The position numbers and the translations under genes are program-made. DNA of 64,000 nucleotides from Gemmatimonadota bacterium. GTDB taxonomy: Bacteria; Gemmatimonadota; Gemmatimonadetes; Palauibacterales; Palauibacteraceae. Of this stretch, positions 5,645 to 21,327 are shown piece by piece; the stretch's first letter is position 1; each line of letters begins with the position of its first letter. The notes below the pieces were generated by a model. The model had not been told where the DNA came from, made no database searches, and saw only the letters and a list, made by a program, of their open reading frames with translations. The stretch is taken from the NCBI GenBank assembly GCA_039588275.1, contig JBDHAC010000017.1:32001-96000 (forward strand), given 5' to 3'.

Positions 5645-8600
5645 TCAGTCCGAGTCGCGTCCGTCCCAGAAGCCGAAGCCGTCTTTTCGGGTGACCTCGA
5701 CCTGGGTCGTGTACGTCTCGTCTCCGATCGTGACCGCTACGGTGTAGGTGCCTGGAGCGGCCAGCGACCCACCTCCGCCGCCGAAACCGCGGAATCCACC
5801 GACGTTCGCGCCCCGGGCCCGCATCCCGGATCGAATCTCCAGAAACGTGTCGCGCATCTCGCCCGGGTCGAAGCCACCGGGACCGCCAGGCCCACCCGCA
5901 CCACCGGGGCGGGCCGCACGACCGCTACCCGTACCGGCCTCCGGATAGCTTTCGCCTGGCCGCTCGCGCCACCCGGTAGCCTCACCGGCCCCTCCCCCGC
6001 GCCCACCCCCACCACCGAACATGCGGCGAAGCGCCTGGGGATCGCCGCCCGTCGCCAGCTGGATCACACGGTCGACGAGCTGACGGTTCGCGCCCTCGTG
6101 CGTCACGAGCGAGTCACCGACCTCCTTGTAGAGCCGGATGTTGCGTAGGCTGTCGGCCCGCTCCGAGGGGGACTGCTCCTCCCGCTCCGCTCGCTTTTGC
6201 AGGTTCCAGTGCGTCCGGTTCAGGCCGGCGTGGGCCGGGCCCGTGAGCGTCTGAACCGTATCACCGGCCGCGTCCAGGATCGCGATCTGCACCTGGGGCC
6301 CCTGCTGCCGGCTTCCCCTCGCGCCTGCCATGCGCGCCCGCATGGCCTCGCGACGGACCTCGGCTTCACCTTCGGCAGCTTCGGCCTCGGGAGCTTGTGC
6401 CTCGCCCTCGGCGCCTTCCTCACCCCCCGCTGCCGCCATGCGCTCGCGTGCCTCCTCGCGCGCCTTCTCCGCCAGCTCTTCGGCGGTGCTCTCCGGCACC
6501 CAGTAGGTGATCTCGGCACCATAGTCGGCGCTCTCGCCCTGGAAGACCCGTTGCGCGATGAACTCGCCACCGACCGGCACATCGCCGAATTGGATCGCCG
6601 TCTTCATCGCGAACACCGTGGGCGAGGACGGGAGCGCACCGTTCGCAAGCTGCTGGAGCGGTGCGATGTCCGCGATCCAGATCGAGCGACCGTGCGTGCC
6701 CGCGATCAGCTCGTGCTCGCGCGGGTGGATCTTGAGGTCGTGTACCGGGACCGTGGGAAGCCCGTTCATGAACTTCGTCCACGATCCACCGCGATCCGTC
6801 GAGACGTACACGCCCACATCCGTCCCGACGAACAGGAGGTTGGGATTGTCGGGATCTTCGCGGACCACGTGTACGAAGTCGGGGCCGCCCCTGGGGAGGT
6901 TGGACGTGATCGAGCGGAAGCTCTCGCCACCGTCGTCCGTGGCGTACACGTACGGCGTGTAGTCGTCCTGCCGGTGACCGTCGAAGCTCACGTAGAAGCG
7001 GCGGGCGTTGTGGCTCGAGGGCTCGATGCGGCTCACGTAGGTGTTGGGCGGGACGCCCTCGAAGCGGTCCGTGAGCTCGATCCATTCGCCGCTGCCGGGG
7101 CCACGCCACACGCGCCCGTCGTCCGTCCCGGCGTACAGCTCGCCCTCGGTGAGGGGCGACTCGGCCAGCGCGACGATCGTCGCGTAGTTCTCGGCGCCGG
7201 TTACATCGCGCGTGATGCCCCCGGTGGTGTTGTAGGCGACTTCGATCTTCTCCGGGTCTGCGTACGTGAGATCTCCGGACAGCGGCTCCATCTCATCGGT
7301 GTCGTAGGTCCATTTGAGGACCTTGTTCGATCCGATGTACAGAGTCTGAGGATCGTGCGGGGAGAGCTGAAGCGGAGTGTTCCAGTTGAAGCGAAGGCCA
7401 TACTGGGCGGAATCGGCCGCCACTCGCAGCTGGAGCGCGTCGATCCGTGCCTGGGCGTCGGCCGACACGTCTTCGGGATCGTCTCCCTGGAGGATGGCGA
7501 TCGAGTCGCGCAGCGCCTTCGTCTCCTCACGCCAGTCGGGCGCCTGGAGCGAATGACGCTCCCCCGTCGCGGTGTTTCTCCAGTAGATCCTACCCTGCTG
7601 GGACTCTCCGAACACGATGTCGGGGTCCGTCGGGTCTTGCGGGGCGTAGAAGCCGTCACCGCCCCCGATCGAGTACCACATGTGGTTGTCGATCTCCCCG
7701 TCGGCTCTCCGGCTCGGGCCGCACCAGGTGTAGTTGTCCTGGAGACCGCCACACACCCGGTACGGAACGTCCATGTTGTAGCTGACGGCGTAGAACTGCC
7801 CCATCGCCATCGTGTTCACGAAGTCGTAGTTCCCGCCCTTGTCCCACGAGACGGCGATCCCACCGTCGTTCCCGACGACTATGTGGTCGGGATCGGCCGT
7901 GTCCCACCACATGGCGTGGTGGTCGACGTGGACGCCGACCGCGGCGTTCCCCACCGTTTTCCCGCCATCCTTCGAGAAGTAGAAGGACGACCAGAACACG
8001 CGGTCCGGATCAGACGGGTCGACGCGTACCTGCGAGTAGTAGAACGGGCGCGTGTTGCTCGAGTTCATGAACGTCCACGTATCGCCCCCGTCCCCGGATC
8101 GATACAGACCCGAGCCGTGCAGATCGGCGCACTCGTCTGCACCGGACTCCTCGGCCTCGGCTTTCTCGGCCCCGGTCTCTTCTGCCTGCCCTTCCTCAGC
8201 TTCCGCCTCGGCCTCACCCATCTCCGAAGCCTCGGCCGTCGGGCACTCCGGGTCTTCGGCCTCGACGATAGCGTACATGATGTCGGGATCGCTCTGGGCG
8301 ATCGCGATCCCGATGCGACCTTTTTCGGTCTCGGGGAAGCCGCCGCCCGTGACCTCGGTCCAGGTGTCGCCCCCGTCGGTCGACTTCCACAGCGCGCTCC
8401 CGGGCCCTCCGCTCTCGAGGTACCAGGGACCTCGAACGCGCTCCCAGCTCGTCGCAAACAGCATGTCCGGGTCGTCCGGGTGCATCGCGAGGTCGACGAA
8501 TCCGGCCTTCTCGCTTACGTAATGGACGCGCTCCCAGGTCTCTCCGCCGTCCTTGGTCCGGTACAGACCGCGCTCCTCGTTATGCCCCCATGGGTGCCCG

Positions 8601-9091
8601 AGGGCCGCGACGTACACGCGGTTGCGGTCGCGCGGGTCGATCACGATCCGGCCGACGGCCTGCGTGTCTTCCAGCCCCATCAGCTCCCACGTCATGCCGC
8701 CGTCGGTGGATTTGTAGACGCCCCCACCGGGCGAGATCGAATTGCGGGAGTCCTCCTCACCGGTGCCGGCCCACACCGTCTCCGGATCGCTGGGCGCGAT
8801 CGCGAGGTCACCCATCGAGATGACGCGCTCGTCATCGAACACGGGGCGGAATGTCGTCCCGTTGTTGATGGTCTTCCAGATGCCGCTCGTCGCGCCAGCG
8901 ACGTAGAACGTCTTGGTGCCTGGGACACCCTCGATGTCGGTAACCCTGCCCGACATGTTCGCCGGTCCGACGGACCGCCACGTCATGCCGGCCATGAACG
9001 CGGAATCTGCGACCGCTGGGGTCTGCGCGAGCACCACCTGAGGGGCCGCGACGAGCACGGCGACGACCCCGAGGATGAGGCGTGTGGACAT
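5645..9091 (-). CDS. Secreted BNR/Asp-box (Vps10/sortilin-like) beta-propeller glycosyl hydrolase-like protein
   Basis: Signal peptide; WRSVGPANMSGRVTD; repeated SxDGGxTW Asp boxes; HVDHHAMW, GGLQDN, RFNWNTP, LFVGTDVG, AGTHGRS. Confidence 0.85.
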   Translation of the reverse strand: MSTRLILGVVAVLVAAPQVVLAQTPAVADSAFMAGMTWRSVGPANMSGRVTDIEGVPGTKTFYVAGATSGIWKTINNGTTFRPVFDDERVISMGDLAIAPSDPETVWAGTGEEDSRNSISPGGGVYKSTDGGMTWELMGLEDTQAVGRIVIDPRDRNRVYVAALGHPWGHNEERGLYRTKDGGETWERVHYVSEKAGFVDLAMHPDDPDMLFATSWERVRGPWYLESGGPGSALWKSTDGGDTWTEVTGGGFPETEKGRIGIAIAQSDPDIMYAIVEAEDPECPTAEASEMGEAEAEAEEGQAEETGAEKAEAEESGADECADLHGSGLYRSGDGGDTWTFMNSSNTRPFYYSQVRVDPSDPDRVFWSSFYFSKDGGKTVGNAAVGVHVDHHAMWWDTADPDHIVVGNDGGIAVSWDKGGNYDFVNTMAMGQFYAVSYNMDVPYRVCGGLQDNYTWCGPSRRADGEIDNHMWYSIGGGDGFYAPQDPTDPDIVFGESQQGRIYWRNTATGERHSLQAPDWREETKALRDSIAILQGDDPEDVSADAQARIDALQLRVAADSAQYGLRFNWNTPLQLSPHDPQTLYIGSNKVLKWTYDTDEMEPLSGDLTYADPEKIEVAYNTTGGITRDVTGAENYATIVALAESPLTEGELYAGTDDGRVWRGPGSGEWIELTDRFEGVPPNTYVSRIEPSSHNARRFYVSFDGHRQDDYTPYVYATDDGGESFRSITSNLPRGGPDFVHVVREDPDNPNLLFVGTDVGVYVSTDRGGSWTKFMNGLPTVPVHDLKIHPREHELIAGTHGRSIWIADIAPLQQLANGALPSSPTVFAMKTAIQFGDVPVGGEFIAQRVFQGESADYGAEITYWVPESTAEELAEKAREEARERMAAAGGEEGAEGEAQAPEAEAAEGEAEVRREAMRARMAGARGSRQQGPQVQIAILDAAGDTVQTLTGPAHAGLNRTHWNLQKRAEREEQSPSERADSLRNIRLYKEVGDSLVTHEGANRQLVDRVIQLATGGDPQALRRMFGGGGGRGGGAGEATGWRERPGESYPEAGTGSGRAARPGGAGGPGGPGGFDPGEMRDTFLEIRSGMRARGANVGGFRGFGGGGGSLAAPGTYTVAVTIGDETYTTQVEVTRKDGFGFWDGRDSD

Positions 9092-9222
9092 CCTCTCAAC
9101 TCCTGTTTCGGAATGACGTATGGCAAGGACTGCGGCGAGGCCTCGTGGCAAGCGCCTCACATCGTGCTTAGAACACTTGAGCGTCCAACCGCGCTGTTCG
9201 CCAGATCCCTCGGTCTCCTTCC

Positions 9223-9681
9223 TCAGGCTCCGAACTGCCGGAGGTGGTGGTCAAAATGTTTGTAACTGAACAAGGCCCAGTCCCGCTGGCTCATCCGGCC
9301 GAAGTGTGGATGCTTCGGCCAATCTCGGTCTGACTCGAGGGCCAGGAACTGATCGACCAACTCGGTGAGAATGCCCAGGTCTTCGGTCCAGCCCGTCGGA
9401 TCGGCATGAAATGCCTCAGGTGGTCCCTTAATGCTGCCCTTCGGCCACGGCAGGACGTAGAGATAGAGCTCGCGAAGAACCGGATAGTTGACGGGGCTTC
9501 GTATGGCCGCGCATGACTCGTCCGCCAGCGTCATCCGCATCTGGTCGCAGAGGTGCGAGAGCATGCGGGGCGCCGTAAGGCTCCCCCACCTTGGTGGCTG
9601 GTCGGGGTTCAGGGCCGAGAGACGCTCGAAGAGCTCGGCGCGGTTCGAAGGGTTGTTGAGCGTCCGGAGCAGGTACGTCAT
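9223..9681 (-). CDS. DUF1569/DinB-like protein
   Basis: PRWGSLTAPRMLSHL ... HPHFGRMSQRDW ... YKHFDHHLRQFG; AGGAG RBS before ATG 9681. Confidence 0.8.
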   Translation of the reverse strand: MTYLLRTLNNPSNRAELFERLSALNPDQPPRWGSLTAPRMLSHLCDQMRMTLADESCAAIRSPVNYPVLRELYLYVLPWPKGSIKGPPEAFHADPTGWTEDLGILTELVDQFLALESDRDWPKHPHFGRMSQRDWALFSYKHFDHHLRQFGA

Positions 9682-9781
9682 CGGGCTCCTCGCGATGATT
9701 TGGCCGGCGATGATCCTGGTGCTGATGGAGAGTGATGGTGCAGGATGCCGGTGGCTCGCGGCAAGGGCTTCGGAGCGTAGA

Positions 9782-9908
9782 TGCCGGAGGTGGACCGGAG
9801 GGATCCCAGAGGCCGGACTCGGGGCGCGAGCGTAGCGAGGGTCGAGCGAGGACGCGGCAGCGGCCGCAGCTCCCACCCTCAAGGGACTATGTCCCACCGG
9901 ATTTTGAG
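9782..9908 (-). pseudogene. Displaced 3' half of tRNA-Leu(CAA) with an 84-nt insertion in the T arm (attR-like)
   Basis: 9875-9908 is identical to 13320-13353 (34 bp, starting at anticodon loop CTCAAAA). 9782-9790 matches the tRNA 3' end CCTCCGGCA. An 84-nt segment replaces TCGAGTCCCT between them. Confidence 0.85.
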
Positions 9909-10004
9909 ACCTGCGGAAGGGGTCACACAGAGCGGAAATCGTGTACCATTTGGGGCTTCCTCGCGCCCGACGTGTCCCTAGATGGCCCTACGTGACCCTC
10001 CGTT

Positions 10005-10026
10005 TTGTCACCGAGTTGTCACCGAG
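10005..10026 (+). repeat. 11-bp tandem direct repeat TTGTCACCGAG x2 (candidate integrase arm-binding sites)
   Basis: Perfect tandem copy about 100 bp from the CTCAAAA core at 9902-9908. The repeat is seen directly; the function is inferred. Confidence 0.6.
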
Positions 10027-10069
10027 ATCGACTGCCCCTGCTCCGCCCTCGCCTCGTCCGGTCCCCGCT

Positions 10070-10213
10070 GGAGCTGGCAGACGCGCCGGACTCAAAAGCG
10101 GCTCGCCACTCCGGCGTATTTCGCTGAAACGCCAGACGCCACGCGGCCTCATGCGCTATTCTAGCGTATCTCCAAAGCTCTGATACGCTCAGCTAGCGAA
10201 TCAGAACCCGCCC
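10070..10213 (+). repeat. Inverted copy of partial tRNA-Leu 5' half plus conserved ~115-bp arm
   Basis: GGAGCTGGCAGACGCGCCGGACTCAAAA (one mismatch to the tRNA), then gcggctcgccactccggcgtatttcgctg...ctagcgaatcagaa, colinear without gaps to the reverse complement of about 17043-17186. Confidence 0.85.
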
Positions 10214-10336
10214 ATAAACCCGCCCAGCGTGGGGTCGAACGAGAACTCGAGACCTTCTCCGAGCCTCGACCTCCTCGAACCGATGGCCTACGTTTACGAG
10301 GGCCTGATCCATACCCCCCGACGGGCCGCGCTGGTC

Positions 10337-13085
10337 ATGGACGCAACTGACTGGGAGCCTCTGAAACGGCTGTTCGAGCGGGCCAGCGCGTTGCCTGCGG
10401 AGGAGCAGGCTGCCTTCCTTGAGAGCGCCTGCGCAGACGACCCCAGTAAGCAAGCCCAACTCGAGTCGTTGTTGGCTGCCGCCCAGGAAGCCAACCCCTT
10501 TTTCGACAGCCTCGCCGATGCCGTCCTCTCGCTCCCGCAATGGACGGACGATTCAACCCCCTCTGCGGCTGCGGAACCCGATCCCTTGATCGGTCGGACG
10601 GTCCACCAGTACCGGATCGACGAGAAGCTCGGAAGTGGCGGCATGGGGGTCGTGTACCGCGCACTCGATACCGGTCTCGACCGAACGGTCGCGCTCAAGT
10701 TCCTCCCGCACCACCTGCGTGCGGACGACGCAGCCACGGAACGCTTCCTGGTCGAGGCCCGGGCCGCGGCGGCCCTGGACCACCCGAACGTGTGCACCGT
10801 GCACGAAATCGGGGAGGACGAGGACGGGCGGCAGTTCATCGCGATGGCCTGTTACGAGGGTGAGACGCTCAAACAGAAACTCGAGCGGGGGCCGCTCCCG
10901 ATCGACGAGGCGATCGATTACGCGCATCAGATGGCGGCTGGGCTCGGGGCTGCACACGCACACGACATTGTTCACCGAGACATCAAGCCGGGGAATGTGA
11001 TCGTCACGCCGGAAGGTGTCGTCAAGGTCCTGGACTTCGGCCTGGCGAAGCTGACCGATGTCACCCTCACTGGCACGGGCACCACGCTGGGCACGGTGGC
11101 CTACATGTCGCCGGAGCAGATCCAAGGCGAAGGAGTGGATCGGCGCACGGACCTGTGGTCACTGGGCGTGGTGCTGTACGAGATGCTGACTGGCGATCGC
11201 CCGTTTAAAGGGGACTCGACGGCGGTCGTGCTTCACGCCATCCAGCACGAGGATCCGCTCCCGCCCTCCGTTCTGCGGTCGGAAGTTCCACCGGAGATCG
11301 ATGCGGTTGTCGGGCAACTGATCACAAAGGACCCCGAGCAGCGGCCCGAGAGGGCCGAAGCTATGGGCCTGGGCAGCGGCGAGACGACCGTGCCCAAAGG
11401 CGTGTTCGGCAGGCCGACCGGGTTGGCGCGGCTCCGCTCGTGGCAGACCGTGGCGGTTCTGCCCCTCCTCGCCGTGGCCATCATCGTGGGCTGGGGGCTC
11501 ACCCGCCCGTCGGGTCCGTCTCTCGCGGTGCCGCGGACGGCGATCGCTGTGCTGCCGTTCGAGGACTTGAGCGTCGAGGCCGAGCATGCCTACTTCGCGG
11601 CCGGACTGCACAGCGAATTACTGACCCAGCTCATGAAGGTGGCGATGCTCACCGTCACGGCGCGCACGTCGGTTCTGGGCTATGCAGATACGTACAAGCC
11701 ACTCTCGGTGATTGCAGACGAGCTGGGCGTGGGAAGCATCGTCGAGGGCAGCGTCCAGGTCCTTGGCGATCGCTTGCGGGTGAATGTGACGCTCTTGGAT
11801 GGCGAGACCGGCGGGGACCTCTGGGCCGACAGCTATGGCGGCACGTTGGAGGACGCCTTCGCGGTCCAGAGCGCCATCGCCCAGCAGGTGGTGGTGGCGA
11901 TTGGAGGGGTCCTCACAGAGACCGAGGCGAGCGCGATTGCCACGCCGCCGACCGCCAATCCCGAGGCGTACCTGCTCTACTTGCAAGGCGAGGAGTACCG
12001 CACGCGGCGGACGAGTTTCGAGCCAGACCTCGAGATCGCACAGCAGTTTTACGAGCGGGCTCTCGCCATCGACTCGACGTTCGCGCTCGCGTATGCCTCG
12101 CTGTCCCAAGTCCACGCATTTCTCTACTGGATGGGACACGACCCGTCCCTCGGGCGGCTCGAGCGCCAGCGTGAGGCGGCGGAGGCGGCGCTCCGACTCG
12201 CCCCCGATCTTCCGCAGGCACGCTGGGCCATGGCGCTGGTGCACTACTATGGTGAGCGGGACTACACCCGGGCCCTCGAGGAGCTAACCGCCGCGGTTGA
12301 GGAGCTCCCGGGATCCGCCGAGCTGTGGATCTTTGTCGGTGCCTTACACCGCCGTTTGGGCCAATGGGATCATGCGGTGGCCGCGTTCGAGAAGGCCACG
12401 GCGCTGGACCCGCGCAACGCGAGTTCCATCGCCGAGGTCGGTAATACGCTCGAGTTCCTGCATCGCTATGAGGAGGCCATCGCGGCGTTTGACCGGGCAT
12501 TGAGATTGGCCCCGGACACTTGGTGGTGGCAGTTGACCAAGGCCACGATTTATCTCCGCTGGCTTGGTGAACTGGATACACTACGGAACACCCTACTGCG
12601 TGGACCCGAGGACTACGGCCCTTATGGCAGCCGGAACCTGTGGAGGGCGCGGTTGGCGCTCTGGGAGCGGGAGCCGGACACGGTGTTGGCGCTGCTCGCT
12701 GCGCCCGAGTCGGTGACGTTTGAGACGCAGGGTTCACGTGAGCCAGGGTTGCTGTACGTCGCGTGGGCCCACCAGCTACGTGGGGATCGTGAGGCCGCAG
12801 CTCGAGCCTTCACGGGTGCGTTGGCGCAGGCGGATTCGTTACTGCGCGAGTTCCCCGACGATTGGCGTCTGCGCGTATCACGGGGTCTGGCATTGGCCGG
12901 CGTGGGGCATGGAATGGAGGCACGGGCGGAAGCGGAGTGGCTTCGTGCGAATGTGCTGGGTCAGCATTACGACCGATCTAGGCGGTCCATCCATCACGGG
13001 CGTGCACGACCTACGGCTCGATCCACGGTGGGATCCGATCCGCGACGATCCACGGTTCCAGGCCCTCCTGGAACGCTACGAGTAG
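10337..13085 (+). pseudogene. Hanks-type Ser/Thr protein kinase + TM + TolB-N-like + TPR, frameshifted near the C-terminus
   Basis: LGSGGMGVVY, VALKFL, HRDIKPGN, KVLDFGLAK, GTVAYMSPEQ, DLWSLG; IAVLPFEDL; TPRs. The family-typical tail LRLDPRWDPIRDDPRFQALL lies in another frame ending at TAG 13085. Confidence 0.8.
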
Positions 13086-13300
13086 CAGCCGAGTCACCGA
13101 GGCACCACCGCCGAGCCGATCGGCTGACCCATCAGATTCCTATGCCGCGTAACAGCCCGACGCACAACGCGAACTCGAGATAGGCGGATTGGGCACTCGA
13201 GCGTTGGGGGGTAACCGCGAGCCGACTTGGCACCGGAACGCTCAGGTGGGACCCCAACGAAGACCACCGAAGGTCGGCTAAGTACAAGCAGGTCTTGAAA

Positions 13301-13385
13301 TGCCGGAGGAGGGACTCGAACCCTCAAGGGACTATGTCCCACCGGATTTTGAGTCCGGCGCGTCTGCCAGTTCCGCCACTCCGGC
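13301..13385 (-). tRNA. tRNA-Leu(CAA), intact, CCA not encoded
   Basis: GCCGGAG/CTCCGGC acceptor stem, D loop GGAACTGGCAGAC, anticodon arm CCGGA-CTCAAAA-TCCGG, long variable arm GGGAC-ATA-GTCCC, T arm GAGGG-TTCGAGT-CCCTC, discriminator A. Confidence 0.97.
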
Positions 13386-13415
13386 GTGTCGTCAGAAACA
13401 GCTTGCACGCTACAA

Positions 13416-13470
13416 CCCAGCAGCGTTCGGCCACTTTCGGTTTCGGCGTGCTGGGCGGCTCTGCTGGGCG
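13416..13470. repeat. TGCTGGGCG direct repeats (13449-13457, 13462-13470) plus a partial inverted copy (13416-13422); candidate arm-type sites
   Basis: Seen directly between the integrase-remnant stop codon and the tRNA 5' end. Confidence 0.55.
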
Positions 13471-13474
13471 AGGT

Positions 13475-13632
13475 TTACTTGACCTCCCGCAGCTCCACCC
13501 CGTGTGTCACGACCTTGAGCATCGTCGCATCGTCGGGCTGTTGATACGCCTGCTTGAGCGCCTCCAAGCTACTCCAGTCTACCGCCTGTGCAACGTCCAA
13601 ACCGGGCAGGCCCTTCCGCAACTTGCCCACAG
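13475..13632 (-). pseudogene. C-terminal remnant of a tyrosine recombinase/integrase
   Basis: My translation: LWAS-(frameshift)-RKGLPGLDVAQAVDWSSLEALKQAYQQPDDATMLKVVTHGVELREVK*. This resembles box II with Trp at the His/Trp position and a downstream Tyr. GTA GAC TGG is two substitutions from a GGW-coding GGA GGC TGG. Confidence 0.65.
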
Positions 13633-14003
13633 CGGAGTCTCTGGGAGCTCTCCTGCCCTCCTAGCCCCGAACGCCCGTTCTCCGCCCGAACCCGCCCAGA
13701 GAACCCGTCCATTCGAGACCGATCGCGTCAGCGGTCGCGCTATTACGCGGCAGAGGAATCGTCTGGGTCAGCAGAAACGGGTGTAGGCGCGTCAGATCGG
13801 AAACGTATCGGACCACCTGTTGGACCCACATCCACAGGCGGTCGCATCGTGAACGTCACGGCGGGACCTCATTTGACCCCAACCGCTCACGCCCCGCTCC
13901 GCCACGACCTGCTGCAGTCTGCGCTGTGCCGCGACGCCATGCGCGGCGCCCGAATCTGGCCCGCGCCTCTGGGGCAAGCCCCTTGTCGTGGTGATCTGAG
14001 CCG

Positions 14004-14501
14004 TCAGCGGCGCGTTGCCGCGAACACGCCAGCCCGGGGGAAGTACAGACGGTCTGAGAACGTGCCGGTCGCCGTCTCGTTCGAGATCACCCCGGCTAGG
14101 CTCAGGACCTCGGTACCGGAGGGGGAGCCTCCCTCCTCGAACAGGACGATCAGGAGCTCGCTCCCGCCGGAGCCGAGCCGGAACTCCGCGGCGCCTTGAC
14201 GTGGCTCCCGGTCGGGGTCTCCGTTTTCGGCCGTCCAAACGCCCGACACCGCCTCTCCCGGCCGGAGCTCCGCTGACGCGACCGAGAACCTCGTCGGCAA
14301 GCCCGTCGGGGTCGGGTTCTGGCTGGTCTGTGTCAGCTCGATGCCGAACGTGATGGACGGGCTCGCGCCCGGGGTCCCGCTCGAGAAGTCATCGCCCGAG
14401 GCCACGTCGCCGAGCGGTTCGGGCGTCCCTGGCCCACACCCGATCATGAGGCTGATCAGGCCGAAAGCCACAAATGAGCGCCCCACATATCCCATGGCCA
14501 T
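14004..14501 (-). CDS. Hypothetical lipoprotein (island cargo)
   Basis: AGGAGGAG RBS; hydrophobic N-terminus ending LMIGC (lipobox-like); beta-rich body. Confidence 0.65.
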   Translation of the reverse strand: MAMGYVGRSFVAFGLISLMIGCGPGTPEPLGDVASGDDFSSGTPGASPSITFGIELTQTSQNPTPTGLPTRFSVASAELRPGEAVSGVWTAENGDPDREPRQGAAEFRLGSGGSELLIVLFEEGGSPSGTEVLSLAGVISNETATGTFSDRLYFPRAGVFAATRR

Positions 14502-14649
14502 CTCCTCCTTCCTCGGTCTCCGGTACCCCCGGGCTCGGTCAATGATTCGACCCCGGGAATGTGTTCCGGGGGGGTCACCTGCCGCACAAACGGCGGCAGG
14601 TGACCGACCCGCGAGGCGCCCCGTTTCGATGGGAACGGGACCACCCAGC

Positions 14650-16212
14650 TCATTTCTTCTTGCCCTGGAATCTCACTTCACTGAAGAAAACGTCGGGATC
14701 ACCGAGGCGGCCATCCCCCCAAACCGCGAAGGTCCGATTGCCGCTCGTGGAAATGTCGTTGTAGTCGCCGAAGTTGGGAATGATGTCGGTGGCCGTAGCC
14801 GCCCAGTCTGTCCCGACATCGCTGACTCGCACATTGGGGCCGAAGGTGACCCCGCCATCCGTCGACTGCGCCATGAACGTGTTCGTGATCGACGTCCCGG
14901 CGTTGAGCCGCCGATCATACCACATCACATCTACGTTGCCCCCGGGCTCGACATGGACCATCGGCCAGAATTGGAGGGCCCCAGGGCCGTCGTCGTTCAC
15001 CAGCACGGGCGTGCTCCAGGACGCACCGCCGTCGTCCGAGTAGCTGAGGAAGACGTCGGCGTCCCCCAACACGGCGTCGTGATACGTAACGTACACCCGT
15101 CCCCGGTGTACCCCGGTCTGCGCGACGGCAATGCGTGGGAAATCGTTGATCGTGGGCCGGTTGTATCCCGAGGGCGGACTGAAGGCGATGGAGCTGATGG
15201 TAGACACGAGGCTGGGCGGGCCGAAGCTCGCCCCGCCGTCCGTCGACGTGGCGACCACGATGTCCGGGGTTGGGGACGTCAACCAGCCTCGTTCCCATAC
15301 CACGTAGACATCACCGTTCGGCGCAACGGCCGGCTCCGACCCCTGGTTGACCGTTCCGGCGATGATCGGACCCGCTACCACGGGCGCCCCGAAGGAGGCG
15401 CCGCCGTCGTGGGAGGCGACTACATCGATCTGAGAATTGGCAAACCCTACGAACCGTGTGTAGGTCACGTACACGTCGGTTCCCGTGTGGTCCACGTCGA
15501 TGAACTCTTTGTCAAGGAAGTCCACCGTCGAACTGGCAGCGTAGATGGGCGTGGCCCAGTTCACGGTGACCGCATCCGCCAGCCCGGTCGTGACGCAGAT
15601 GCCGCTGATCGCCCCGTCGAAGCAGAGGTCCGCAAACAGGAAGTCCTTGTCGTTGTTGACGGCCAGGGCTGGATCACCGCCGTGGATGAACCCCGCTGTG
15701 GCCATCCGAGGGAATCCGCCCCCATCTGTCCACGTCTGTCCCCGGTCGGTGGAGACCCCCCACCCAGAGAGGCCGTCAGCGGGGACGTAGAAGCCTGCCG
15801 CATCGTTCCAGGCCGCCACGAGCGTGCCCCCGGACGAGGCTATGCTGACTTCGCTCTGGCCCAGCCCCGGTTGGGCGCGGTTGTTCACGAGGACATCGGC
15901 CATGTCCGTCGGGCCGCTGGCCGCGGCGACGCGGGAGAACGAGGGCATGCCGATCGAGATACCGGAGCTCCGCCCGCGGCTGGTCCGAGCGTCCGCCGCG
16001 TCCGGCCTGCCGAACAGGAGCCGATACGACGCGGCCCCCAGGTAGTCCTTGTACGGTTCAGCACGTTCGGCCATCTGGTCCAACAGATCACTCTCTACGA
16101 CGCTGAGCGCGGGAGCGGCGCCCGGCTGCAGCGGCCCCCCCGAATCCTCGCAGGCCGCCATGGCGAACAGGGCCAGGCCCGCTGCGAAAGCGGGGATACG
16201 TTTCCTAAACAT
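14650..16212 (-). CDS. Sialidase-like BNR/Asp-box lipoprotein (island cargo)
   Basis: AAGGAGG RBS; MFRKRIPAFAAGLALFAMAAC lipobox; Asp boxes STDRGQTW, SHDGGASF, STDGGASF, SDDGGASW, STDGGVTF; QFWP, WYDRR, FGDY. Confidence 0.8.
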   Translation of the reverse strand: MFRKRIPAFAAGLALFAMAACEDSGGPLQPGAAPALSVVESDLLDQMAERAEPYKDYLGAASYRLLFGRPDAADARTSRGRSSGISIGMPSFSRVAAASGPTDMADVLVNNRAQPGLGQSEVSIASSGGTLVAAWNDAAGFYVPADGLSGWGVSTDRGQTWTDGGGFPRMATAGFIHGGDPALAVNNDKDFLFADLCFDGAISGICVTTGLADAVTVNWATPIYAASSTVDFLDKEFIDVDHTGTDVYVTYTRFVGFANSQIDVVASHDGGASFGAPVVAGPIIAGTVNQGSEPAVAPNGDVYVVWERGWLTSPTPDIVVATSTDGGASFGPPSLVSTISSIAFSPPSGYNRPTINDFPRIAVAQTGVHRGRVYVTYHDAVLGDADVFLSYSDDGGASWSTPVLVNDDGPGALQFWPMVHVEPGGNVDVMWYDRRLNAGTSITNTFMAQSTDGGVTFGPNVRVSDVGTDWAATATDIIPNFGDYNDISTSGNRTFAVWGDGRLGDPDVFFSEVRFQGKKK

Positions 16213-17042
16213 CCCATCCTCCTTCCTTCTTAGGTAGGCCGGCGGAGCTTGGGCGCTCCGCCCGACGGGGCTGACGACCGGGAAGTCGGTTCTCCCGGTC
16301 TGCGCTTTGATCCTGCTGCCAGACAGGATCGTGGGCGCGATCGCCCGCGGTGAACGGTGGGGACGCACGAGAACCCTCCCGGCTTTCCCTCCCTCGCGCC
16401 GTCGTCGCGGCGCTCGGGAGGAGTGGCTAGGAGACAGATTTCGTGGGCTCCAAGGAACGATCGGTCGAATATGCGAGGAACATCCGGACTCGTTCCCTGT
16501 AAGTTGGACTTGCCAAACACGTGCGCCCCCTGTGGGTGTCGTGTTGCGGTAGCTGTCAGCTGGTGAGTTCCGTCACAGAGCCGCCAGCTGGCAGCTTTCT
16601 TGTTCTATGGTCGCCCGTCCCGCTCATCCCCGCTGGGAACTAGGCAGTCGCCTCCTTATATCCGCCAAGAACGAGAAACGGGACGCAACCCACAGGCTAC
16701 GCCCCGCTATTACTTTTCGTGGCTGTTCGAATTGGTCGGGTTAGAGAGTCCGCGAGACGTGAGCCGAGTTCGGTGCGAAGGGAGAGCTACGGGAGCGGCA
16801 AACCACTCAGGAGGTAGGCACCGTAGGATCCTGATGCTCATGCCCAAGACCCGCGCAAAAGACCACTTCCGCCCCGAGCCACAACCCACCAACTCTTGCA
16901 GTCTACCAGACCCGCACACGCACCGGCAAGAGGCGTTCGGCAAGAGGGGGACTAGACACCGCACCACCGACCTCGGGCGAAGGGGCGTCAGCTAACGAAT
17001 TGCGCGTCAGGGGAGTTGGTTGTCCGGAAGAAGAGCAGCATA

Positions 17043-17198
17043 GGGGGCCTTCTGCTTCGCTAGGTCAGCCCATCCGAGCTCGAGCTATACGCTGGGATAG
17101 CGAAGAAAGGCTCGTGGCGTATGGCGTTCCAGCGAAATACGCCGGAGTGGCGGGCCGCTTTTGAGTCCGGCGCGTCTGCCAGTTCCGCCACTCCGGCG
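17043..17198 (-). repeat. Displaced 5' half of tRNA-Leu(CAA) (17197-17159) fused at the anticodon loop to the conserved arm
   Basis: 39 nt identical to the tRNA 5' half ending at CTCAAAA, followed by gcggcccgccactccggcgtatttcgctgg..., homologous to 10098-10213. Confidence 0.9.
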
Positions 17199-17340
17199 AG
17201 TGGAGTGATTAGTAAGGCCGAGCGAGCGCGTTCGCTACTGTCGGTTGTCTCGGGTTCTGCCCCCTCAACTCTCTGAATCGCGCACTGCAATCCACGCGTA
17301 CGCATGGGTGAACCTGACACGGTTACCTGGAGGCCCCCGC

Positions 17341-17676
17341 ATGGACATGGACCTGGCGCTGATTCTGGCATTCGTCGTGACATCGCTCTTCATCGTCGTC
17401 GGGGGAATCGTGCTCTTCCCGATCGCCCGACGGCTCGGCGCGTACCTGGAGACGTTGGCCCTCGAGCGCCGCAAGCCACAGGCGCCAGCCCTCCAGGATC
17501 CCACTGGCTTGCAGGAGTATCTCACGGGCGTGTCCGCCTCGCTCGAATCCATCGAGGGCCGTCTCGACCTGATCGACGAGCGGCAGACCTTCCTGGAGCA
17601 CCTCGTCGAGAATCGCTCGCCCGAGCGGTTGGCCCAGGGCGTGGCGCCGAAGGATGCCCGGACGCCCACCGCCTGA
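17341..17676 (+). CDS. Small single-TM membrane protein with a coiled-coil tail
   Basis: GGAGG RBS; hydrophobic N-terminus, PIARRLG..., then RLDLIDERQTFLEHL. Confidence 0.7.
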   Translation: MDMDLALILAFVVTSLFIVVGGIVLFPIARRLGAYLETLALERRKPQAPALQDPTGLQEYLTGVSASLESIEGRLDLIDERQTFLEHLVENRSPERLAQGVAPKDARTPTA

Positions 17677-17723
17677 AGGGGTTTGCTCGTGAGCGGCCGC
17701 CCGACCTAGGTTGGGGATAAGAG

Positions 17724-17809
17724 AATGCCGGTGCGCGCGGTATTTGAGCGGCGTGATTGCCGTCATGTCCTTGCCACAGGAGGGTGCCGCGACGCACCGG
17801 CATTTTTTT
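17724..17809 (+). terminator. Long hairpin followed by a U-tract (terminator or structured sRNA)
   Basis: AATGCCGGTGCG (17724-17735) pairs with CGCACCGGCATT (17793-17804), followed by a run of Ts. Confidence 0.5.
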
Positions 17810-18028
17810 CGCCTCGGGACTTCGCCCGGGCATCTATCTGTAATACGGAACTCGGGACCAAATTTGTTTCCCAGCCCGTCCGAGTTCTAAGACACCCGCC
17901 ACCGTCGTTTGGTTGCTTTTCGGCGTCCCTCACCAGAACGAGGCCAACGGTGAATGGGTGCCGCGGACGCGAGGAACCGAGCGCGCCCTCGACACGCGCC
18001 GGGGCGCGACGGTCAACCGAGGCGAGGG

Positions 18029-19135
18029 TTAGACGGGCAAGTAGAAGAACACCAGCCCGAGAATCAGGTAGATGGCGAGCAACAGGACCCCTTCCATCCA
18101 GTGCGTGATTCCATCGTCCGCAATGCTGGAGATCGCGAGCACGGATAGCCCTACCGCCACCACCTCGAGCGACGTGAAGCGCAGATCCATGGGCGCTGGC
18201 CCGATCGCGTAGCTGAGGAAGACGAGCAGCGGCGCCACGAAGAGTGCGATCTGTACAGAAGAGCCGACCGCGATCTGGACGGAGAGATCCATCTTGTTCT
18301 TGAGGGCCATCAGCACCGCGGTCGAATGCTCGGCCGCGTTCCCGACGAGCGCGACCACGATCACGCCGATGAACACCTCGTTCATGCCCAACGTGTGCGC
18401 AGCGTCCTCGGCGGCGCCAACGAGGATCTCGCTCATGAGCCCGACGACCGCTGCCGCAGCGAGGAGCACGCCCAGCGCCTTTCTCGCGGACCACGTCGGG
18501 GTGTCTTCGCCCGCATGGTCTCCGCCGTCTCCGGCCTCATGGTGGTGACGCTCGCCCACGTACAGGTGTTGGTGTGTGCGAAGCGTGAACACGAGCGCCA
18601 GGACGTAGCTGGCCATCAGGACGACCGCGATCGTCAGGCTGAGAGGCTGCTCGTTGGCTAGGCTGGTGGGCGCGATCTGGTGGTACACGGCGGGGACGAC
18701 GAGGCCGATGGCGCTCAACAGCAACATGGTGGACCCGAGGCTCGCCGCGGTGCGGTTGAACTCTTGCCGCCTGTAGCGCAGGCCGCCAAGCAAGGCGCTC
18801 AGACCGAACACGAGCAGGATGTTCCCGATGATGGACCCGGTGAGCGAGGCCTTGACCAGATCGGTCAGCCCCGCGCGGAGCGCGAAGATCGCGATGATCA
18901 GCTCGGCGGCGTTGCCGAACGTGGCGTTCAGCAGGCCGCCCAGCCCCGTGCCGACCCGCACCGCCAACATCTCGGTCGATCTTCCCATCAAGCCTGCGAG
19001 CGGGATGATCGCGAGCGCCGAGCACGCGAAGATGGCGACGGCGGACGCATGCCAAACGTATTCGATGGCCAGCGTGACGGGGATAAAGACCAGCAGGATG
19101 GAGAGTGCGTTTTCTGCGCTGAGCCGCCGTGTCAC
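18029..19135 (-). CDS. cax: Ca2+/H+ antiporter (CaCA family)
   Basis: [58 protein letters not shown] start chosen downstream of tRNA-Cys. Confidence 0.92.
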
Positions 19136-19178
19136 CGCCGCGTCTCCCGGTCCACGCACCAGAGTCCGATGGGTAAGA

Positions 19179-19249
19179 AGGCGCCGTCCGGATTCGAACC
19201 GGAGTAGGGGGCTTTGCAGGCCCCTGCCTAGCCGCTCGGCCACGGCGCC
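19179..19249 (-). tRNA. tRNA-Cys(GCA)
   Basis: GGCGCCG acceptor stem, GGGGC-CTGCAAA-GCCCC anticodon arm, TCCGG-TTCGAAT-CCGGA T arm, U discriminator typical of Cys. Confidence 0.97.
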
Positions 19250-19377
19250 ACGACGGACGAAAGCCTAATCGGTTTTCGGTCACCGGTAAAGACCGCGATC
19301 GGCCTCGCGCGGGCACATTCTACCCCCGAAGGTGACCCGGGGTCGCCGGGGCGACCCCGCCGGTCTATACTCGCCGC

Positions 19378-21327
19378 ATGCTGACCCGAATCTCTGGCCC
19401 GGACACCGGGTTACGCGGCCTCATGCCGCCGGCGCGACCGCCTGTGATGCACCCCGCATCGCGCGCTCCAGGGGCGCCGGGGGCATGGCTGGCGATCGTC
19501 GGGATGCTCGCCGTGCTCGCCTTGCCTGCCGGAGCCGCCGCCCAGTTCCGGGACGCGAGGCTGCCACCCAAAGGCGAGCTCTGGTTCGACCTTACCGGGT
19601 CGTTGCTCAACTGGGATTCGCAGTTCGCCCTGGACAGCCCGGACTCGGAGCTCGGGGACGGGGCGCGCGAGCCGCTGTTCAGGGACTTCGACGGCCCGAT
19701 CGCGGACCGCTTGTTCCCCGGTGCGACCTCACTGATCGACGGGCTCAACGCGGATGCCGATGCCCTCGGCTTCGACCCGGTCGCGCCGGAGGGCTTCTCC
19801 ATGGGCAACCTCGAGTTCGGGACGATCAACGCCCAGCGGCGGCGGCTCGAGTTCGGCTTCGAGCTCGGCTTCTTGGACCGGATAAGCCTCGAAGCTCGGG
19901 TTCCGCTGGCGTCCGCCGAAGTCGAGCCCTGGTTCGCGTTCGATTCAGCCTCCGCTACGATGCTGCCGGCGGCGAACGCGATCCCCACCGGCTTCTTCAC
20001 GGGGTTCCGAACGGCCGTGGCGGACCTGGATGGACTGATCGCGGCAGGTACGCTGTCGCCCGGCGATATGGCGATCGCCGTCGGGCTACGTGACGGAGCG
20101 ACGGTGTTCGTCGATGCGCTCGAGCGCCGGGTCATGGAGCTGCTGCTCATCCCGACGGGCCTCAGCCCCGCGGGGATGCAAATGATCTCGCACGTGGACT
20201 CGCTCGTTGCAGGGTTCGGGCTCTTCGATGTCACCCTGCCGGCGCTGCCACTTCCCGAAGTGGCAGCCGCCGCGGACATGACACGCCTGTTCACCGACCC
20301 GCCCCTGTCGGGAATGGTGCCGGGGCCCAGCGATCGAGCCTGGGCGTTGGGAGAGATCGAGCTCGGGGCTCGTTTCGGCATCCTGGACCAGATCACGCAC
20401 ACGCTCACCCTGGAGGCTCCGAGCCCGGCGGCAGAACCGCCCGTAGAGACACCCACCGAACCGCCCCTAGAGACACCCACCGAACCGCCCGCTCAGGACC
20501 CAGCCGCCGAGGCCGGCGAGCCGGAGCAGCCGGGGGAGGAGCCGGCGCCGGAGCCGGCGCAGGAACCGGTCATCGATACATCGCCCGCGAGCGATGTCAG
20601 CTTCCTCCGACTTCGCACGACCGTCGGGGCAAAGGTCCGCCTGCCGGCCGGATCTCCGAACGCGCTCCCGTACGAGAACCCGTCCGACTTCATCGGGATT
20701 CCGATCGGCGACGGTCAGATGGATGTCGAGGTCGCCCTCTACCAGGACATCGCCTTCGGCAAGCGGCTCCTGTTCAGCGTCGCCGCACAGTACGGTCTGC
20801 AGCTCGCGGATGAGCTCACGCTGCGGATCCGCCCGCCGGATCGTCCGTTCACGTTCGAGGGCACCCAAGCGTTGGTTCAGCGGGACCTGGGCGATTACGT
20901 GCAGGTGCGTCTGGCGCCGCGGTTCCAGCTCTCGGGTGGGATGTGGCTCGGGTTCGAGTACGGGGTGTGGCACAAAGGGGTCGACCGGTACGAGTTCGGG
21001 CCGACGCTCCCGGGGATCGAGGACGCCACTTCCCTCGAGATCGAATCCGAGCAGCGGCGCAACCGGTGGGGGATCACGTTCCTGTTCGAGCCGGGCCAGG
21101 GCGCCCGGCGCCCTGAGACGCCCCCTCGCCGCGAGTCCGCGGGCGATGCAGTCGCCGAAGGCGGTCCGGAGACGGCGGGACGGGAGGCAGTCCAGCGCCC
21201 TCAGCGCCGAACCAGTGGTTGGCGGTTCGCGATCACCCTGCAGCGCGCGGCATCGGGGTCGGGGGGACAGACTCCGGCCTCCTCGCTCGTGGCGGTGACC
21301 GTGCGAGCGCCGATCCGGATCTTCTAG
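19378..21327 (+). CDS. Hypothetical secreted/outer-membrane protein with a P/E-rich linker
   Basis: Signal-like segment ending AGAAAQ; alternating beta-strand patterns; terminal Phe; start uncertain (19423 or 19447 possible). Confidence 0.65.
   Translation: MLTRISGPDTGLRGLMPPARPPVMHPASRAPGAPGAWLAIVGMLAVLALPAGAAAQFRDARLPPKGELWFDLTGSLLNWDSQFALDSPDSELGDGAREPLFRDFDGPIADRLFPGATSLIDGLNADADALGFDPVAPEGFSMGNLEFGTINAQRRRLEFGFELGFLDRISLEARVPLASAEVEPWFAFDSASATMLPAANAIPTGFFTGFRTAVADLDGLIAAGTLSPGDMAIAVGLRDGATVFVDALERRVMELLLIPTGLSPAGMQMISHVDSLVAGFGLFDVTLPALPLPEVAAAADMTRLFTDPPLSGMVPGPSDRAWALGEIELGARFGILDQITHTLTLEAPSPAAEPPVETPTEPPLETPTEPPAQDPAAEAGEPEQPGEEPAPEPAQEPVIDTSPASDVSFLRLRTTVGAKVRLPAGSPNALPYENPSDFIGIPIGDGQMDVEVALYQDIAFGKRLLFSVAAQYGLQLADELTLRIRPPDRPFTFEGTQALVQRDLGDYVQVRLAPRFQLSGGMWLGFEYGVWHKGVDRYEFGPTLPGIEDATSLEIESEQRRNRWGITFLFEPGQGARRPETPPRRESAGDAVAEGGPETAGREAVQRPQRRTSGWRFAITLQRAASGSGGQTPASSLVAVTVRAPIRIF
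20434..20490 (+). repeat. In-frame 24-bp tandem repeat (EPPVETPT-EPPLETPT-EPP)
   Basis: gaaccgccc(g/c)tagagacacccacc, two full copies plus a partial third. Confidence 0.85.

Follow-up and report, generated by a model that had tools for sequence, protein, structure and literature searches.

We examined whether the tRNA-Leu(CAA) gene within a 64,000-nucleotide (nt) stretch of Gemmatimonadota DNA (GenBank assembly GCA_039588275.1, contig JBDHAC010000017.1, positions 32,001 to 96,000 of the forward strand; this whole stretch is the window, and its own numbering is used below) obtained its 5' half, and possibly its transcription, from an integrated element. The question arose from a sequence-only reading of the locus, which had claimed a 40-bp direct repeat covering tRNA nt 1-39, not the 3' end of the gene, with an integrase-like remnant and the repeat lying upstream of the intact tRNA on the same strand. 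Both observations were borne out. The tRNA-Leu(CAA) gene was called at 13301-13385 by both ARAGORN and Rfam (minus strand, as are all features of the locus given below unless marked +); Rfam returned two tRNAs over threshold and nothing else. The 40 bp at 13347-13386 and 17159-17198 were identical, diverged immediately on both sides, and corresponded to tRNA nt -1 to 39, the last 7 nt being the anticodon loop CTCAAAA (nt 33-39). Genome-wide blastn confined the exact 39-nt match to this locus (E = 7e-14). The integrase-like peptide, encoded on the strand of the tRNA, has its stop codon 90 bp upstream of that gene, with tandem arm-type repeats after it. A count of tRNA-Leu(CAA) genes, proposed as a check, gave this one only; the assembly, which is 86% complete, has 56 tRNA calls in all.

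Which of the two 5' halves is ancestral was assessed by synteny with relatives of the same genus. In genomes G001 and G002 the backbone runs RecN, a 650-aa open reading frame (ORF), tRNA-Cys, a Ca/H antiporter and an ortholog of the small ORF at 17341-17676, followed directly by an intact tRNA-Leu(CAA); the gene likewise lies downstream of the small-ORF ortholog in G015 and G017. The tRNA leader in G001 and G002 matched window positions 17199-17217, including an AT-rich motif, and had no match to 13386 onward, and the G002 sequence 3' of the tRNA was 87% identical to window 13215-13300. The empty site, with host leader joined to a whole gene, is therefore represented in G001 and G002, although in other species and not isogenically. 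Since their intact tRNA sits at the 17159-17198 position with the same leader, the interval 13386-17158 was inserted and restored the gene with a 5' half of its own. Very probably it is a decayed island in tRNA-Leu(CAA) with reversed polarity, likely inserted at the anticodon loop by a tyrosine integrase of a Gemmatimonadota family, the intact gene having an element-side 5' half and having lost its old leader. The sequence-only claim that the element supplies the 5' half was thus supported by synteny and by the integrase layout described below; the flank from 13386 onward, which it had named as the ancestral leader should the claim be wrong, gave way in synteny to a leader at 17199 onward. The restored att junction (13301-13385) would then consist of an element-side 5' half (13347-13385) and the host 3' half (13301-13346, continuing into the conserved downstream flank 13215-13300). 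The displaced host 5' half is at 17159-17198 and the ancestral leader at 17199-17217; the AT-rich motif there is promoter-like by position but lacks the form of a canonical hexamer, and the leader held no match in a scan for TAnnnT (-10) hexamers. Because the 5'-half repeat ends at nt 39, and a 3' fragment of the same tRNA at 9875-9908 starts at nt 33, the anticodon loop (13347-13353) is the likely 7-bp crossover core, common to this island and to one downstream.

The integrase within the interval is a C-terminal stub only (13475-13632, ~48-52 codons), which keeps the catalytic-Tyr region and is without the H-x-x-R box and all upstream domains. The stub alone gave no Pfam hit; it aligned to the last ~48 residues of full-length homologs of 374-419 aa, two of which pass the PF00589 cut-off, and NCBIfam returned no family for two full-length integrases. 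It is the end of a ~417-aa tyrosine integrase family that is almost confined to Gemmatimonadota, with stub matches in 36/145 genomes of the order. Family loci comprised 75 from a collection scan (nearly all titled Gemmatimonadota), one from a viral collection, and, from metagenomes, the best 80 of 197 loci. In DNA, similarity to the family begins at ~13632, and the closest DNA relative of the window end is locus L217 (integrase end, arm and tRNA-Leu(TAA); 72% over 298 bp). In the family the element attachment site (attP) lies ~100 bp past the stop codon, and integrase genes are whole in integrated elements. The same layout holds in the window, where the integrase-side attP arm (13386-13474), with tandem arm-type repeats right after the integrase stop, takes the place of the host leader.

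Polarity was labelled where the 400 bp next to the integrase end held a tRNA gene or a fragment of one, same-strand genes being scored as reversed and facing genes as conventional. A tRNA was near the integrase end in 57/76 collection and viral loci (38 reversed, 19 conventional), and 44/80 metagenome loci were labelled (37 reversed, 7 conventional; 15 loci had <150 bp downstream); the genome and metagenome sets overlap in some near-identical records, 10 of which were dropped for the 64-protein tree below. Full-length homologs, to which the sequence-only reading had pointed as a check, mostly end ~100 bp upstream of a same-strand tRNA and not downstream of tRNAs with 3' repeats, the layout it had said would count against it. 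In this integrase family the reversed layout seems the more frequent, with the normal direction also in use. Reversed loci span 19 anticodons, and both polarities occur at nine (Val UAC, Pro UGG, Pro CGG, Ile GAU, Ala UGC, Arg CCG, Asn GUU, Thr UGU and Gly CCC). At Met, Gly, Pro, Ala and Val genes, reversed elements of 0.6-71 kb are delimited by a 5' half at the far end (L115/L178, L119, L125, L163 and L175, and elements in G145, 71 kb; G146, 47 kb; G147, 17.7 kb; and G157, tandem), and far-end 3' fragments confirm conventional elements in L176, G148 and G149. The element itself carries the 5' half, because six junctions (L160, L181, L182, L188, L190 and L204, the last at Leu(CAA) with a full integrase present) read integrase end, arm, 5' half, far attP arm (P').

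Polarity has changed repeatedly within the family. The more careful of two trees, built on 30 proteins after 27 rows shorter than 200 aa had been removed, needed 4 polarity changes (3-4 in bootstraps), 2 of them forced by strong branches, and a single reversed clade was rejected by the approximately unbiased (AU) test (p = 1.3e-6); a quick tree of 64 proteins, which drew long-branch warnings, gave 6 changes, 2 forced. The trees are unrooted and therefore assign no direction to the changes. In the clearest pair, with both ends seen in each element, the reversed 47-kb element of G146 and a conventional 24-kb element of G148 both occupy tRNA-Val(UAC), and their integrases are 62% identical over 413 aa.

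How the restored tRNA might be transcribed was considered from the same sequences. The host leader is 3.8 kb from the intact tRNA, beyond the P' arm and a terminator-like site at 16708-16677, and from the start of the cargo to the tRNA no terminator-like site was called on the minus strand. A sigma-70 scan of 9000-19500 found no promoter-like site; candidate -10 hexamers are TAGCGT at 13412, 21 nt upstream of the tRNA, and TAGCTT at 13571 inside the stub. Hairpins (z < -2) occurred in the arm between integrase and tRNA in 11/21 conventional versus 7/50 reversed loci (Fisher p = 0.002, for relatives that are non-independent), and 6/6 far-end junctions that were folded were more stable than shuffles (z -2.4 to -6.1). 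The hairpin contrast is consistent with transcripts that run on from the integrase gene into the tRNA in intact reversed elements. The circular element would have read integrase end, arm repeats, tRNA 5' half, loop, P' arm. Among intact relatives, read-through from the co-oriented integrase gene, as is reported for archaeal pTN3, would most likely produce the restored tRNA, and the hairpin-rich P' arm would block transcription from the stranded host promoter. In the window copy, with integrase gene and promoter deleted, the tRNA would depend on a weak promoter in what is left of the integrase side or on transcription coming in from the co-oriented cargo. The tRNA may itself be dispensable, judging by codon usage, because UUG accounts for 7.9% of the 68,516 Leu codons counted in long ORFs and tRNA-Leu(UAA), which the genome has, can read UUG by wobble.

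Several results weigh against a reversed island read by element transcription. The relatives with empty sites, G001 and G002, are other species (~81% DNA identity) and provide no isogenic empty site, and contigs of two DNA runs, with patchy low cover, bridged neither junction and held no excision joint. Polarity labels rest on adjacency; when 10 reversed loci were followed through whole genomes, a far-end 5' half was on the same contig in 4, on another contig in 1, and was not found in 5 (L148, L151, L177, L191 and L199). The hairpin contrast uses mononucleotide shuffles and related sequences, and many of the strong hairpins fall in one all-conventional clade. Finally, TAnnnT hexamers were not enriched in reversed arms (18/48 versus a shuffle mean of 13.8; 32/300 shuffles as high), while the same test saw signal in native leaders (14/56 versus 6.8) and gave 4/17 versus 4.8 in conventional arms; several of the matches in arms resemble IHF-type sites.

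These results were set against three other explanations. The flank from 13386 onward could be the ancestral leader after all, with 17159-17198 a stray partial duplication and the integrase stub derived from an unrelated neighbour. The element is indeed without an intact integrase, and in this genus partial 5' halves with arms do turn up as strays at a distance from tRNA genes; however, the spacing of stub, arm and tRNA is the norm of the integrase family, and the position of the intact tRNA in G001 and G002, with its matching leader beside the ortholog of ORF 17341-17676, largely refutes this account, which we consider extremely improbable. It is also improbable, though less so, that a family integrase encoded elsewhere in the cell mobilised the interval in trans as a cassette without an integrase, one member of a set of P'-arm cargo cassettes reshuffled among tRNA-Leu genes. 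Four copies of this P' arm are present in the genome, and orphan copies occur in G001, G002 and G015, often before genes for kinase-tetratricopeptide repeat (kinase-TPR) proteins; contig C21 carries a tandem pair of such units, and an intact family integrase is present on contig C70. Against this, an integrase stub belongs to the window element itself, whose P' arm repeats are gone, the C70 integrase faces a different target, tRNA-Lys(CTT), and an excision joint was not among the low-cover contigs mentioned above.

The third explanation, in effect the sequence-only reading in full, accepts reversed integration but holds that the integrase end contains its own dedicated tRNA promoter, kept by selection; we regard it as possible, if doubtful. 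It can draw on the TAGCGT hexamer at 13412, on the sister insertion at tRNA-Leu(TAA) (contig C21), whose leader has host-like -35/-10 boxes, on the Leu(TAG), Pro(TGG) and Val(TAC) genes of this genome, which also stand behind family ends, and on remnants, which were more frequent in reversed than in conventional loci (20/35 versus 5/17). But -10 hexamers were not enriched over the 48 reversed arms, the 7.9% share of UUG codons and the presence of tRNA-Leu(UAA) speak against it, and the remnant excess has p = 0.08 in a search (five contig-edge cases left out) whose motif lies in the integrase-side end itself. The suggestion of the sequence-only reading that this end is retained after integrase decay because the tRNA needs it is, given this p value and the anchoring of the search, not supported. 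A reversed island, with read-through as the most likely source of the tRNA in its intact relatives, remains the reading we prefer.

The locus is an ordinary example of a rare, catalogued class, and the reversed arrangement itself is not new. Islands in tRNA genes (tDNA) with a displaced 5' fragment and reversed target orientation were reportedly described by Zhao and Williams in 2002. Table 1 of the Islander database paper gives 159/3919 islands with a 5' fragment (PMC4383910), and 5'-distal integration is said to be considerably less frequent (PMC6563490, citing Zhao and Williams 2002). As in that class, the integrase family is of the tyrosine type, the site is centred on the anticodon, and the 5' fragment lies upstream of the restored, intact gene on the same strand and ends at the crossover subsite. 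The window element differs in having no more than an integrase stub, for which the integrase filter of Islander might discard it, and the family differs in that reversed loci are its majority and that, among close relatives, one isoacceptor is used in both polarities. In archaeal pTN3-like integrases attB is the 5' half of a tRNA gene and the restored tRNA is expressed from the integrase promoter, an arrangement seldom seen in bacteria (PMC8371274). Those integrases are split by integration (suicidal), whereas the present family, which is bacterial, separate and equipped with arm-type repeats, has integrases that end ~100 bp before the tRNA and stay whole. The 7-nt loop crossover is the same as in conventional anticodon-loop (lambda-type) islands, the polarity of about 1/3 of the family's labelled genome loci and of the island downstream of the window tRNA; such islands, unlike the window element, duplicate the 3' half and keep the host promoter. 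The distinctive part is the repeated polarity switching among close relatives on the same isoacceptor. The papers that we read held no account of two-way polarity or of a Gemmatimonadota clade, although the Islander and TIGER island tables may already list members; the portions of PMC9897764, PMC8138268 and PMC1635311 that we saw hold nothing further on polarity.

The family provides natural pairs of related integrases acting on the same isoacceptor with opposite polarity, and with pairs such as that of G146 and G148 the way in which an integrase-attP pair flips its target orientation becomes directly testable. It also suggests that several Gemmatimonadota tRNA genes are cut off from their ancestral promoters. 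We tentatively propose that the clade switches polarity as readily as it switches tRNA, each switch moving the terminator hairpin to the other arm, and that single-copy housekeeping tRNAs in the reversed state (Val UAC, Pro UGG, Leu UAG, Ala UGC) would rely on the element for their transcription; if so, the reversed state would make the integrase-side end undeletable, a domesticated tRNA promoter, and this genome might have four or five such tRNAs.

The 3.8-kb window island contains cargo only. Upstream of the integrase stub are the 3' stub of a kinase-TPR cargo gene (13849-13933, 78% to the end of the C21 kinase-TPR gene; it reads VAAQRRLQQVVAERG), a 165-aa ORF with a lipoprotein-like signal by eye and no family over cut-off (14004-14501), a 520-aa ORF for a secreted BNR/Asp-box-repeat-like protein whose Pfam hits are below cut-off (14650-16212), and a repeated non-coding leader without an Rfam match (16480-16975), a candidate cargo promoter region. 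The P' arm (17043-17158) has a 14-bp inverted copy of the tRNA 5' end (17140-17153) and then a hairpin; alignment with six sister arms showed it to be without the terminal arm-type repeats that these carry. With the integrase a stub and these repeats gone, the element is likely locked in and dead. ORF and Pfam inspection found no head or packaging genes in it. Because its closest intact Leu(CAA) relatives, which lie upstream of the gene (L108 and L214), carry terminase large subunit (TerL) and prohead protease genes, the ancestor, to judge from gene content, was likely a phage or phage satellite. In the inverted copy, the base facing tRNA position 7 is T in CAA-type arms (window 17140-17153) and C in TAA-type arms (this genome, G000 C21:49147-49165), matching the target; the inverted copy is absent from the Leu(CAA) junction of L204. 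The leader occurs in five copies in the genome, the others on contigs C38, C73, C9 and C47, mostly before signal-peptide ORFs. On C38 a 60-aa ORF, missing from the window copy, lies between the leader's two blocks; it had no Pfam hit and looks Flp-pilin-like.

Two more pieces of tRNA-Leu(CAA) lie outside the span first noted. A displaced 3'-half fragment (9875-9915) is the far end of a separate conventional island downstream of the tRNA (9875-13300), the flank 9800-9908 being conserved in G001 and G002; this island has tandem arm repeats (10005-10028) of another integrase family, so that the tRNA is flanked by islands of both polarities that have the 7-nt loop in common. Inside it, at 10070-10230 (+), is an orphan inverted junction, a partial 5' half (tRNA nt 12-39) with a complete P' arm and its arm repeats, which stands before a kinase-TPR gene (10337-13183, +) that seems frameshifted near its end, a typical-looking C-terminus being in another frame with a stop at 13085. 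Similar orphans are present in G001, G002 and G015. Orphan junctions of tRNA-Leu 5' halves (nt ~8-22 to 39) with complete P' arms were seen away from tRNA genes at 10070-10230, C21:45392, L054, L055, L056, L293 and L296; several stand, by eye, before kinase-TPR or mercury-resistance-like regulator genes, the loop-proximal part being kept while the rest decays. A class-wide search for the P' arm gave 3/301 genomes, this one included, among the top candidates scored.

At G000 C21:45392-52150 (L001), two units in tandem, both with this P' arm, lie upstream of tRNA-Leu(TAA); the newer is without an integrase end and ends in the leader with host-like boxes. On the downstream side, an integrase from a different family points towards the gene in the conventional layout. 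This genome has additional family ends at C41:551-1031, C83:5-442, C87:~8560-8780 and C70:17813-19218. The ends before Leu(TAG), Pro(TGG) and Val(TAC) are reversed, that at Val(TAC) being a stub by eye, and the C70 member is intact and conventional; the reversed Leu(TAG) arrangement is common to this genome and G001. The 17.7-kb reversed Val(UAC) element of G147 (L284, C3:1554500-1574000) carries a second integrase and a SMODS nucleotidyltransferase gene, which suggests defence cargo.

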